From contig OZ024742.1 in assembly GCA_964016885.1 (NCBI GenBank), positions 216,008,001 through 216,072,000 on the forward strand: 64,000 nt of DNA, read 5' to 3'. The stretch is from Eledone cirrhosa (lineage: Eukaryota). Under the pieces are notes generated by a model. That model did not search any database, had not been told where the DNA came from, and worked only from the letters and a program-made list of their open reading frames with translations. Positions 1,008 to 63,038 of the stretch are shown piece after piece; position 1 is the stretch's first letter, and each line of letters begins with the position of its first letter. The position numbers were made by a program, and so were the translations under genes.

Positions 1008-1634
1008 CAATATATTAATAAATGGAAACTATAATTATAAAACCATAATTATTTAATTATATATATTTCAAGAGCAACCAAGGCAGGCTTGGTGCGCCTT
1101 CATCAGATATAATACACAATACGTCCAGAATTAGCCGTCGAAACGGCTTGAGCTCAGCTGTCGGGGTCTTACTGGTTCCTATATATATATATATATATAT
1201 ATATAAATATATATATACAATATATTAATAAATGGAAACTATAATTATAAAACCATAATTATTTAATTATATATATTTCAAGGGCAACCAAGGCAGGCTT
1301 GGTGCGCCTTCATCAGATATAATACACAATTTGTTTTGTAAATAGTGACATAACCGTGGAAAACAAGCCTGACGGTTAAAAATTCAACCGTAAAGGTTGT
1401 TTTCCACGGTTATCTCACTATTTATAAAACAAATTTTATATATTATCTGATGAAAGCGCACCAAACCTGCCTTGGTTGCCCTTGAAATATATATAATGAA
1501 AAAATTATGGTTTTATAAATATAGTTTCCATTTATTAATATATTGAATACTTACTCCACATTTGTTGAGTGCTCTATATCAGTTATAAACATTTAAGTTT
1601 GTTGAAATCCCAACAAATTAAATATAACTTCTGC
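1008..1634 (+). mobile_element. PLE pLTR fold-back (family B) with hammerhead motifs and a partial tandem duplication
   Basis: Inverted arms 1218-~1377 and ~1386-1545, then a 3' tail 1546-1634. 1008-1120 duplicates 1218-1330. Homologues at 25103-25260 (+), 25403-25590 (-) and 62767-63038. Confidence 0.75.
1442..1497 (+). ncRNA. Minimal type-I hammerhead ribozyme motif (family B). Antisense copies at 1056-1113 and 1266-1323
   Basis: CTGATGA (1447-1453), stem II aagcgcaccaa/ttggttgccctt, GAAA (1484-1487), palindromic ATATAT, A, then a short AT-rich stem I. Confidence 0.6.
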
Positions 1635-1683
1635 ATATATATATATATATATATATATATATATATATATATATATATATATT

Positions 1684-2063
1684 TATATTGGTAAACGGAA
1701 TAGAAAATGCTGACAAATTGTTCACAGTTGAAAAATGGTTTAATTAGGAATAAAAGAGTATTAGTGATTGTATGGGTTAGTATTCAGTTGTGGTTTTAAG
1801 TTTTTAAGTTTTTACCGGTTGCGCATTTCTAAATCAAACAGCACGGACACTCTATCTCAAAATTATTTTTGAAAAGCATTTAGAAATGCGCAACCGGTAA
1901 AAACTTAAAAACTTAAAACCACAACTGAATACTAACCCATAAAATCACTAATACTCTTTTATTCCTAATTAAACCATTTTTCAACTGTGAACAATTTGTC
2001 AGCATTTTCTATTCCGTTTACCAATATATAATAACTTGTGTGTTACACCTCTATTCTTTTAAC
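1684..2063 (+). mobile_element. PLE terminal fold-back (family C) with a ~33-nt 3' tail
   Basis: Near-perfect inverted arms 1684-1834 and 1878-2028. Unpaired tail 2031-2063. GAAATGCGCA resembles the 3' half of a hammerhead. Flanked by (TA)n. Confidence 0.65.
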
Positions 2064-2112
2064 TATATATTTATATATATATATATATTTATATATATAT
2101 ATATTTATATAT

Positions 2113-2715
2113 TTCGTTTCTGAATTTGTTTAGCAAGATTCTTTATCTGAAATCGTGTGTTGAAACCGATATTGTTATACTTTGGGAGGGTCATGTTGCC
2201 AATAAGAAACACACGCACCAGTTGCTTTCACTTCAATTTATTATATATTTATAAATTTATAAATTTACAAATCTACAAACTTATAAATTTCTGGTTGGTT
2301 GGTTGGTTCCACAACCAGATAGTTGTTTATATATAGTTATAGTCCTTTCGTCACACACTCTGTGACCTCTTCAGTGACTGGGGATTCCTTTCTTCATTTC
2401 TGTGCCTTTCCTTTCTTCTATCCTACGCCATTTTGTTTCACACAGAAACAAAATGGCGTAGGATAGAAGAAAGGAAAGGCACAGAAACGAAGAAAGGAAT
2501 TCCCAGTCACTGAAGATGTCACAGAGTGTGTGACGAAAGGACTATGACTATATATAAACAACTATCTGGTTGTGGAACCAACCAACCAACCAGAAATTTA
2601 TAAGTTTGTAGATTTGTAAATTTATAAATTTATAAATATATAATAAATTGAAGTGAAAGCAACTGGTGCGTGTGTTTCTTATTGGCAACATGACCCTCCC
2701 AAAGTATAACAATAT
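2113..2715 (-). mobile_element. PLE pLTR fold-back (family A) with a hammerhead in each arm
   Basis: Arms 2169-2439 and 2445-2715 with few mismatches. Tail 2113-2168. The same sequence follows a GIY-YIG C-terminus at 25710-26315. Confidence 0.85.
2505..2549 (+). ncRNA. Type-I hammerhead motif (family A). Antisense copy at ~2335-2379
   Basis: AGTCA CTGAAGA t GTCACA gagtg TGTGAC GAAA ggac TA TGACT: stems I and II pair and the core is intact. Confidence 0.8.
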
Positions 2716-59860: not shown

Positions 59861-62048
59861 TATTGTGCGATGAACAAATAGGAAATGTGTTGCTTAACTA
59901 CTGTACACACGCACACACAACCATACACACACATACACACACAAACATATATATATACATACATATATATATATATATATATATATATATATATATATAT
60001 ATATATATATATATATATATATATATATATACTTATAAATATAACATACATACATACATATATATATATATATATATATATATATGTATGTATGTGTGTG
60101 TATCCATGTATATATACGTGTGTGTGTGTGGGGGGGGGGGGGGGTAGAGAAAGAGGCTGACATATTTGGAGCGTTCTACTTTATAAATATACATAATGAT
60201 TGCAAAAGAGTAAATATAGTAGTCTCAAAACAAATTCGCTAATTATAGTCGAATTACATTATTTTCGAAGTTGCCATTTTCCTTCTCCATGTGGTCTTGT
60301 CTCCCGGATTTGATGTCCAGTTCTGTCTACTGTAAGTCTTGTTGCTGCTGTAGTAGTTGTTATTGTTGACGACGCTGCTTTTGTTGTTAACGTTACTTAG
60401 TTCTTGTAGTTATAATTCCAACTCTTTTGATATTTTTGTCGTTGTTGTTGTGCAACCATCTAACGCATTTCTATAACTGTGTGTGTTATACGTTTTCATT
60501 GTTTGTCAATACATCAGTTGTTTTTTTTAATTCTTATTACTATCCCTTTGTTGTCGGTCTCTCATAATTTTGATTTTTATCTTTATTATTATGTACGCTT
60601 ATGTATCGCTATAGTTATTGCTGTCTCTGTTGTTGTCGGCGTCCTCATTATCAGAGTTCTTTTAACGAGAGGAAATCGAGCCAGCGATAGATTCCTGTCT
60701 ACAGTCCAGAAATTTTTCTCCATTTTCATTCTTTCAAAGAAATCCCATTTCTTCTGTCAGTTTGATATTGATTATCTAATTATATACGCACACCTATACA
60801 TACACATAAATATCTACGGCCACACACAGGAAAGCATACATCTATCTATGCAAATAAGTACAAGTCTATATGTGTTTATATGCATATATATATATACATA
60901 TATATATATATATATATATATATATATATATATATATATATATATATATATATATATGCGTGTGTGCGTGTATGTTCGTGTCTATATATATATATATATA
61001 TATATATATATATATATATAGACACGAACATACACGCACACATACACGCACACATACACACACACACACACACAGAGAGACGGTGTGTGTGTGGGGGGGG
61101 GGGGGGGGGTGATTGAAAATATATTATTTTTACATCGTTTCTTTAGTGTATATATACTAGTTGACATGTCTATATCGATGCTTCATATTTCTGTTTTAAT
61201 CCTCATCGTCAATGTTGTAATTGCATCATTTAAGACAATTCTGGCCTTAAAGATCGTGTCTGTTCTCTTTTATTTCTGCAAACGTTTGCGTTGTTCCTAA
61301 AGTATTTCTTTGCTATATTCAACTCCTTTATAGTTATCGAACATAATATCATTCACAAACAAACATTTATTTGTTGTGGTATGTTTTAGACTTGATAACA
61401 CATTTTCCTTTTATATGATACCTCTATTAAAGAGGAAAATAGATTTTGGAATTTTTATGAGGTGTTTTGTTATAATAATTCCTTTTTTGTTTTGTGTATG
61501 AGTGTGTATACATGATTCTTTCCATGTCACAAAACACCATATCATAGATATTATTACGAGTCACCGCAAATTATCAGGTACAACGTTACAACAGTACAGC
61601 CGATAACCACTGCACACGTAATGCTGGTGGTCAATGCGTTTGTCAAGAGGTATACATCTACCATATGAAGATAAAGTGAAACAACCGTGAAAACCGTTTT
61701 ATTACGACTCTAAATTAGTTCCAGCACCAGACCTAAAAGAAGCTGAACGGCACACAGAGGGTGCACACAAACGCCAACACACACAAACAAGTGCAGGCAT
61801 ACATATACGTACGCATAAACATGTGCAGTCATGTACCGACATGCATACACATGCATGCATATATTTGTATATGGAGAAACTGATATTAAATGTAGTTTTA
61901 TAAAAGGTGTGTGGAATAGTCTTGTGAAAGGCCGTATGTGCCTGTGATGCAGCAACATATGTGGGTATGCATGTGACTCCATGCATAGAAGCTTAAATAT
62001 TGTACATTCCTATGTATATATATATATATATATATATATATATATATA

Positions 62049-62672
62049 CTAGCAGATGTACCCGGCCTTGCTCGGGAAAGGAATGACAGCCTGTTTGTAC
62101 GTATAAAGAGAGCCAAAGGTTGAGCAAAGAATTGAAATTAATTGTAAAAAAAGTTTAACAAAATGGGTGTACAGTGACATGATTGAGTGAAATAAACGGC
62201 AACATAAAAACAATTCATGGGGTAGCTTGAGTTAATTGACGTGAATGATTTCAGGTCCGGCCTTGCTGTAATAGGTATGAGTAAAGGGATAAAGATGGAA
62301 TAGACGCACCGTATGTTCTTCAGTAGACTAAACGCTATGCGTAAGATGGCGCTGCCACTACCACGTTGACCATCCACTGGACATAGAAATATCATTCCTT
62401 GAAGCAAATCGACCTAGTACTTCAAAAGTTAAAAGGAGCCTAGTATTTGTACACAGACAGATACACACACAAAATCGATTTTTCGGCCCCAATATCGATT
62501 TTTTTAAAATTTGTTTTTGTCCAAAACCTGCTCTGGCATATAAGCAACATGTGTGCCAAATCTGGTTGAAATCGGCCTATTACTTCAAAACTTAAAAGGA
62601 GCCTAGTATTTGTACACAGACAGACACACAGACAGACACACACATAGACCGACTTGCTTTTATATTTATAGA
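62049..62672 (-). mobile_element. Non-autonomous Helitron (HINE-like) with an internal ~64-bp direct repeat
   Basis: Minus 5' end A|TCTATAAATATAAAAGC followed by (GTCT)n. 3' hairpin CCCGAGCAAGGCCGGG, tacatctg, CTAG|T. Repeats at 62407-62470 and 62569-62633. Confidence 0.85.
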
Positions 62673-62766
62673 TATATATAGTGAAAAATGGAACGGGAAC
62701 AAAACAGAGAGGCAGTACAAACAAAGGTTTATTAGTTTCACGCTCTTAAGAGCGGGATATATATAT

Positions 62767-63038
62767 GTACAAGTTCTATTTAAATTGTTGGGATACAACA
62801 TGCAAATATTTTTATAACTGATATAAACCACTCAACAAATAATTGGCGTAAAAATACGGGGAGCTTCCAACAGTAATGGTTGCATTCTTTAAAGGTATGT
62901 CAATATTTATTTATAAAACTGCTCTAGATTATATTTTATCTCATGAAAGCACACCATAATTTAACTTGGTGTCCTTGAAATATGTATAATTAAATAAATA
63001 TGGTTTTATAAATATAGTTTCCATTTGTTAATATCGTA
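62767..63038. mobile_element. Family-B PLE end with a clean inversion
   Basis: 62767-62858 is the 3' tail in - orientation. 62900-63038 is the + arm with a mutated hammerhead (CTCATGA 62940..GAAA 62977) and stops where the tail begins. Confidence 0.7.

Follow-up and report, generated by a model that had tools for sequence, protein, structure and literature searches.

Paired tailed and tail-less ends in fold-back insertions of Penelope-like retrotransposons into TA repeats of Eledone cirrhosa

The stretch under study, hereafter the window, comprises 64,000 nucleotides (nt) of the Eledone cirrhosa genome (assembly GCA_964016885.1, contig OZ024742.1, positions 216,008,001 to 216,072,000, forward strand); it is an AT-rich stretch of animal type, packed with (TA)n tracts, in which we observed arms of three families (A, B and C) of Penelope-like elements (PLEs). 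Our subject is the ends of these arms and how they come to be paired. We denote as T an arm end with a tail extension, and as B a tail-less arm end. The B site lies upstream of the T site, and the distance between them, that is, the tail, is about 58 nt in family A, about 86 nt in family B and about 36 nt in family C. Self-comparison of the window and an inverted-repeat search recovered every structure named in an earlier reading of this DNA (the original prediction).

A fold-back of family A consists of a T arm at 2111..2438 on the minus strand, with the 58-nt tail plus AATAT at 2111-2173 and its inner end at a hot spot described below, and a B arm at 2439..2715 on the plus strand, whose terminus ...GTATAACAATAT adjoins (TA)n. 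Another T arm, at 25621..25723 (minus strand), has little beyond the tail (about 39 nt), and the B arm of about 600 nt at 25707..26315 (plus strand) spans the C-terminus of a GIY-YIG domain, the 3' untranslated region and the pseudo-long terminal repeat (pLTR), with its B site at (TA)n. In a diverged variant, A', a B arm of about 800 nt (49541..50341, minus strand) includes part of the GIY-YIG coding region and ends in GTATAACG at (TA)n; next to it, a T arm made of the tail and about 7 nt (50342..50417, plus strand) completes what had been called a clean inversion. The B arm of a second A' copy (53846..53959, minus strand) has no detectable T arm, and at its inner end the place of the tailed arm is taken by a perfect local palindrome of 19 nt enclosing a short TA run (53945-53993). 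Thus, all four family A arms predicted to abut (TA)n, at 2715, 26315, 49541 and 53846, are present. The window further holds a single T-type family A copy at 46443..46860 (minus strand, end approximate), absent from the original list, whose outer end lacks about 6 nt compared with the usual tailed end.

Family B is represented by a B arm at 1218..1380 (minus strand), of which a local duplicate, 99% identical, lies at 1004-1120; a T arm at 1383..1634 (plus strand), with a tail of about 86 nt and the terminus ...CTTCTGC at (TA)n; a T arm at about 62767..62905 (minus strand) with a B arm at 62900..63038 (plus strand), the latter ending in AATATCGTATAT at (TA)n; a single T arm at 25404..25556 (minus strand); and a further diverged T arm at 25104-25282 (plus strand). 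The duplication at the first of these places involves a 141-nt stretch of TA and family B arm (980-1120 and 1190-1330, 99% identity), and the 59-nt spacer between the two units (1121-1179) resembles, in reverse orientation, the flank of locus L105, which belongs to another TA-inserted repeat. Family C contributes a B arm at 1685..1834 (minus strand) and a T arm at 1878..2063 (plus strand), with the 36-nt tail at 2028-2063. The original prediction had placed the end of the family B arm at TTAATAT, about 90 nt from the 3' end, and had given family C a tail of about 33 nt; the arms and tails are there, with the family B end lying 7-9 nt beyond TTAATAT and both tail lengths amended as above.

The fold-backs represent canonical Penelope-like retrotransposons, of the endonuclease-bearing kind, that have inserted into (TA)n. 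At locus L031 we found a full-length family A copy on the minus strand, with a unit of 4,151 nt and a frame of 919 codons containing a YVDD motif, a CX4CxxC linker and a GIY-YIG domain. The latter scores 23.9 bits against PF01541 (cut-off 22.6), and the match of the same family to the reverse transcriptase (RT) profile RVT_1 is weak (E = 8.9e-4, 19.5 bits, under the cut-off of 29.6). Family C reaches 29.1 bits against RVT_1 (E = 9.8e-7; cut-off 29.6), displays YLDD and DKG motifs, and scores 32.8 bits against PF01541 (cut-off 22.6). In both families the GIY-YIG domain is C-terminal to the probable RT, the canonical arrangement of endonuclease-positive (EN+) PLEs according to the portion of PMC8557442 consulted. 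Inspection of the linkers (CIDKKCITC followed by VVYSIRCTEGQC..YIGET..EH..QH in family A; CDRPNCGIC followed by LIYVLTCSGC..YIGQT in family C) indicates that these two families carry the CX2-5CxxC linker and the Cys/His (CCHH) motifs typical of Neptune-like endonucleases. Family B has no Pfam match; by eye it possesses an RT-like frame, a GIY-YIG-like motif and a CxCx5Cx5C linker, which may be of the Hydra kind. The partial tandem of the pLTR, the inverted 5'-truncated copy and the one-sided tail are all present in L031, and the genome-wide pairing described below agrees with this. The layout of L031 runs from an inverted 5'-truncated arm through a partial direct copy with a tail to the full 4,151-nt unit, which ends tail-less.

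Sequence searches of the PDB with the family A protein gave marginal matches only (a Drt3a RT at E = 0.12 and I-TevI at E = 0.29). A search of the window and of the family A pLTR against Rfam detected no hammerhead ribozyme, whether at the gathering score or with E relaxed to 10, and no other credible family. By eye, the family A pLTR contains a hammerhead-core-like stretch, CTGAAGA-N18-GAAA with a 5-bp GTCAC/GTGAC stem (window about 2506-2535, mirrored at 2349-2378), whose spacer exceeds by one nt the 7-17 nt range applied in the part of PMC8557442 consulted.

To map the outer ends across the 3.0-Gb genome, we used as an anchor for family A the 19 nt just upstream of the tail-less end, GACCCTCCCAAAGTATAAC. 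It occurs 30,712 times (the reversed control, 0 times) and is followed by the tail in 13,227 cases and directly by TA in 14,555, so that 27,782 of the 30,712 fall into two classes; the leftover 2,930 include point variants such as AATGTA. At the first 30 loci on contig 1, all 31 occurrences belong to the tail or the TA class. The other families behave similarly: family C has 9,063 anchors, 3,651 of them with the tail, and each of 30 sampled sites shows either the 36-nt tail or TA; among the arms of family B (11,469 anchors), the stop comes after CGTATAT or ATTGTRTAT, or after the 86-nt tail. The absence of internal breaks ruled out that the tail-less end is due to plain microhomology joining: none was seen at the internal TATATATA when the first 100 family A anchors beside it, out of 3,377, were inspected, nor at the TATAT inside the tail in the corresponding first 100, out of 4,318, of family B. 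Hence, each arm stops at one of two sharp sites, and not merely at the nearest TA microhomology. Mapping of termini along the lines proposed as a check accordingly yields two sharp outer sites in all three families rather than random breakpoints, and bears out genome-wide the stereotyped two-site geometry that had been drawn from the window.

The two kinds of end are combined by a rule of one each. We classified 194 family A sites (94 T, 100 B) in the first 36.3 Mb of contig 1 and found, among neighbours at most 1.5 kb apart, 40 in head-to-head, three in tail-to-tail and one in direct orientation. The head-to-head pairs comprise 38 T/B, two T/T and no B/B; the chance of at least 38 mixed pairs out of 40, with either type equally probable (p = 0.5), is 7.5e-10. 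Extending the distance to 6 kb gives 45 T/B pairs with 42 distinct spacings, 20 with a left-hand and 25 with a right-hand T end, and leaves 43 T and 53 B sites unpaired. When the first 100 places, equal to 69 non-redundant loci, were mapped by BLAST, 37 head-to-head pairs emerged, of which 36 are T/B, the sole apparent T/T pair being due to the tandem-internal tail of L031. For family C, eight of eight sampled pairs are T/B, and the first 100 anchors form, within 6 kb, 31 pairs: 28 of T with non-T, three of non-T with non-T, and none of T with T. In family B we counted five T/B pairs and one B/B-like pair (L101).

The arms of a pair also share their history. In the 20 pairs with at least 100 nt in common, partner arms are 97.09% identical, as against 93.62% when arms are randomly re-paired, and none of 20,000 shuffles attained the 97.09%; for nine of the 20 T arms the best match is the arm's own partner. 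Partner arms are thus co-derived, that is, they stem from one insertion event. Together with the pairing counts, this supports the view that two different fixed sites mark the two ends of a single insertion event. Short-read contigs of run X12, possibly the assembly's own sample, contain 22 different joints between a T arm and a B arm, and in runs X12 and X16 TA immediately precedes the B end.

Both sites lie within the repeating unit. In head-to-tail copies the sequence is unbroken at the tailed end, and the body of the next unit follows (family A, L031 and L017; family C, L121 and L130). In family A, a stop-free frame of 369 codons crosses both sites: its ATG lies 21 nt before the end of GTATAAC, so that, counted in this frame, the tail-less site falls at about +21 to +26 and the one with the tail at +84. 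No long frame crosses the site in family C. Given the read-through in head-to-tail copies and the family A frame, both sites look like internal start sites. The original prediction had taken the tailed end, 55-65 nt beyond the other and on the opposite side, for the true 3' end; a second sharp end does exist, 58 nt on, at a site that is internal to the unit rather than a demonstrated RNA 3' end.

The inner junctions, where the two arms meet, are more varied. Among 36 pairs the T arm is the longer in 12 and the B arm in 16, the two being equal within 12 nt in eight; the shuffle mean for equal arms is 1.93, and only six of 20,000 shuffles reach eight. The tail-less end is hence not specific to the inverted arm, as had been supposed: in L031, too, it is the inverted arm that bears the tail and the full-length direct copy that has the B end. 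The arms overlap by at least 100 nt in 20 of the 36 pairs, and at the other extreme stand tiny T arms (8, 16, 19 and 25 nt) whose B partners measure 31-264 nt. At the joints themselves, BLAST-defined arm ends lie -2 to +5 nt apart in about half of the pairs.

Superimposed on this spread is an inner-end hot spot at AAACAAGATGGCG: 10 of 72 arm ends fall there, 245-270 nt upstream of the tail-less site. The window fold-back at 2111-2715, termed a full hairpin in the original prediction, has both arms stopping there, and when its T arm was compared with the genome, an inverted arm directly adjoined 19 of the best 40 matches. We analysed 10 of 15 such hot-spot hairpins, five of the 14 retrieved loci (L146, L147, L148, L153 and L156) being excluded as one or both exact anchors were missing. 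All 10 are T/B and they show seven junction sequences, which argues for repeated independent events and not for copies of one master. The inner junction is accordingly not the plain continuum of hairpin, overlap and clean inversion that had been predicted, having a hot spot and an excess of equal arms. About 35 nt upstream of the hot spot lies a palindrome, GCGCATGCGC (window about 26015-26045; 6960-7000 of L031 in the sense direction). We take it to resemble an NRF1-type promoter element, and it hints that transcription may begin at the hot spot. Because the hammerhead-core-like motif lies about 90 nt downstream, cleavage by a hammerhead was rejected as an explanation of the hot spot. In family C, five of the 31 head-to-head pairs on contig 1, in both orientations, have exactly 377 nt between anchors, a spacing that looks like the counterpart of the family A hot-spot hairpin.

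Several processes might give rise to such fold-backs. Arms of equal length, in the excess noted above, are what one would expect if a single cDNA (complementary DNA) folded back and primed its own copying, the copied arm losing its tail on being joined to the other TA end. In six pairs the BLAST-defined arm ends indeed overlap by 12-32 nt, and three of these (L010, L021 and L024) are equal-arm pairs whose inner ends, 77-112 nt upstream of the B site, lie in AT-rich self-complementary sequence; self-priming was also inferred for rotifer Penelope elements from palindromes at inverted junctions, in the part of PMC3846280 consulted. A copy, however, can neither exceed its template nor gain a tail, yet either arm may be the longer, and T arms of a few nucleotides attached to much longer B arms are left unexplained. 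Were the tail lost by trimming to the nearest TA microhomology, breaks should occur at the TATAT inside the family B tail, where 100 anchors provided none. We therefore regard self-priming as an unlikely explanation.

A still smaller probability attaches to fold-back masters that were inherited and copied whole, with the T/B asymmetry as a frozen accident. This would suit the observation that in at least 11 of the best 40 genomic matches to the window T arm the inverted arm starts within 1-2 nt of one point, and likewise the fivefold recurrence of the 377-nt spacing in family C, but it sits poorly with 42 distinct spacings among 45 family A pairs, with the several junction sequences of the hot-spot hairpins, and with a rule common to three families that have tails of unlike sequence and length. 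Least probable of all, to the point of being nearly negligible, is that the pairs are unrelated insertions lying side by side in one TA tract, or artefacts of assembly. PLE ends are dense in TA tracts, and unrelated adjacent arms do occur (L044, L046, L080 and L081); nevertheless, chance neighbours would be T/B in 50% of cases and not in the 95% observed, would not favour head-to-head over tail-to-tail orientation by 40 to 3 within 1.5 kb, and would not be more alike than arms from different insertions. The variety of T/B joints in the contigs of X12, with the reservation already made as to its source, speaks against an assembly artefact.

Hence, we posit as the likely explanation that reverse transcription on the element RNA is primed by both nicked strands of a single target, each from a different one of the two fixed sites, and that the resulting cDNAs are joined head to head. 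Both arm ends would then be start points of cDNA, by analogy with the in-vitro behaviour of a Poseidon element of the green anole. One RNA molecule probably serves both strands, each start site being used once, whereby T/T and B/B pairs would be nearly absent. The cDNA begun at the downstream, tailed site may follow and displace that begun upstream, which would leave overlapping arms, and the two cDNA 3' ends might subsequently be joined with little or no homology. The hot spot 245-270 nt upstream of the B site probably marks where the template RNA has its 5' end, the run-off point of both cDNAs; such run-off at a shared 5' end would produce the recurrent full hairpin. The preferred one-RNA reading would also account for the unpaired T and B singles and for the equal arms. 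The original prediction had likewise invoked priming by both nicked strands at different sites. This part survives as the best reading, given the 38 T/B pairs out of 40 and the co-derived arms; its identification of one of the sites with the RNA 3' end is not supported.

Several observations weigh against this double-priming model. A genuine T/T pair exists at L143, and a complex structure with two T arms at L144. The enrichment of equal arms, with several such junctions in a palindromic AT-rich stretch, fits fold-back self-priming as well. In family A the identical letters AATAT|CG follow both sites, and this 4-5 nt of TA-like sequence (AATAT) masks the exact first copied base; target-site duplications are unreadable within (TA)n. 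The tail region with both start sites, folded as a single family A sequence, has a minimum free energy of -11.7 kcal/mol (z = -0.73), which lends no support to a special structure. The single RNA and the placing of its 5' end at the hot spot are inferred, not observed. Finally, the start site did not differ between strands in vitro, and the one-each rule was not predicted there (PMC11167929). Beside the T/T pair of L143, in the TA tract, we noticed a miniature insertion (1487-1535) made of a 32-nt tail-less arm and the last 15 nt of the tail.

This geometry has already been published: the parts of PMC3846280 and PMC8557442 consulted describe inverted copies truncated at the 5' end, tails confined to one end, and insertion into (TA)n. 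The families described here resemble the PLEs of Arkhipova et al. 2013 (PMC3846280) and Craig et al. 2021 (PMC8557442), so far as the consulted parts go, in having an inverted 5'-truncated copy beside a direct copy, a short extension at one insertion end only and a (TA)n target. The tails given in those parts are 30-40 nt long, compared with 36, 58 and 86 nt here. In the rotifer Penelope elements, as in family A, the open reading frame (ORF) starts inside the pLTR and the tail supplies extra codons; according to the portion of PMC3846280 consulted, the pLTR encodes the first 12 amino acids and the tail extends these to 22, the corresponding figures here being about 7-9 and 28.

The closest biochemical parallel comes from a purified PLE protein that cleaves and extends both target strands, with reverse transcription from two adjacent internal sites that bound the tail (PMC11167929). 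The footprints described here agree with that finding. The element concerned, Poseidon_Ac (PAc), comes from the green anole (Frangieh et al. 2024, PMC11167929) and shares with our families the two adjacent internal RT start sites and an AT-rich target; its start sites lie within the first about 120 nt of the ORF (PMC11167929), and those of family A are similarly placed. The two systems differ in that PAc starts without homology to the cut DNA, whereas both sites here have AATAT matching the TA target, and in that PAc displays no strand preference for either site, whereas the genomic footprints assign one site to each end (PMC11167929). Furthermore, PAc belongs to the Penelope/Poseidon clade, and families A and C have a linker of the Neptune-like type.

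The other comparison, made in the original prediction, is with the twin priming of L1 elements, in which both target strands reportedly prime on one RNA, giving an inverted 5' segment and a direct 3' segment, a scheme said to go back to Ostertag and Kazazian in 2001. Its internal priming site is variable and its cDNAs hardly overlap. The clean inversion at 49541-50417 matches that form exactly. In general, however, the internal site here is fixed with single-base precision, and the usual overlap between arms, from tens to thousands of nucleotides, gives fold-backs, and the L1-type process, with its variable site and near-abutting cDNAs, is thus not upheld.

A literature search, covering titles and the openings of abstracts, did not find the term twin priming tied to PLE insertion structure, and only PMC11167929 combined Penelope-like elements, target priming and both strands; a retrozyme preprint (10.64898/2026.07.22.740005) contains no passage on tails or priming. 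The T/B counts, the co-derivation of arms and the inner hot spot were not found in the consulted parts of PMC3846280 and PMC8557442. What the present analysis adds, then, are the counts in three families, the statistical one-each rule, the arm co-derivation, the microhomology controls and the inner hot spot. PLE integration is only partly understood, and the one in-vitro study (PMC11167929) does not settle how the two extended strands are resolved. The footprints in this genome, natural and numbering tens of thousands, supply a rule that any model has to accommodate, namely one T and one B end per event with co-derived arms, and they yield simple predictions testable at the bench. More tentatively, and with somewhat less than even confidence, we propose that PLE integration is an obligatorily coordinated double target-primed reaction, in which one RNA serves both ends of one (TA)n break from a different site at each. 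If true, this would explain the tail, the inverted pLTR and the recurrent hairpin centred on the RNA 5' end. For annotation, fold-backs in TA repeats are to be read as ordinary PLE ends, and neither as a new type of element nor as errors of assembly.

Two minor features adjoin these elements. The full-length PLE of L031 is neighboured, at 2-1738 on the minus strand, by a frame of long interspersed nuclear element (LINE) type with an Exo_endo_phos domain. Within the window, a unit of about 85 nt (cgataaaataaa.taccagtaatg.actgggtaatt...) occurs in two tandem copies at 53994-54170, each followed by TA repeats.

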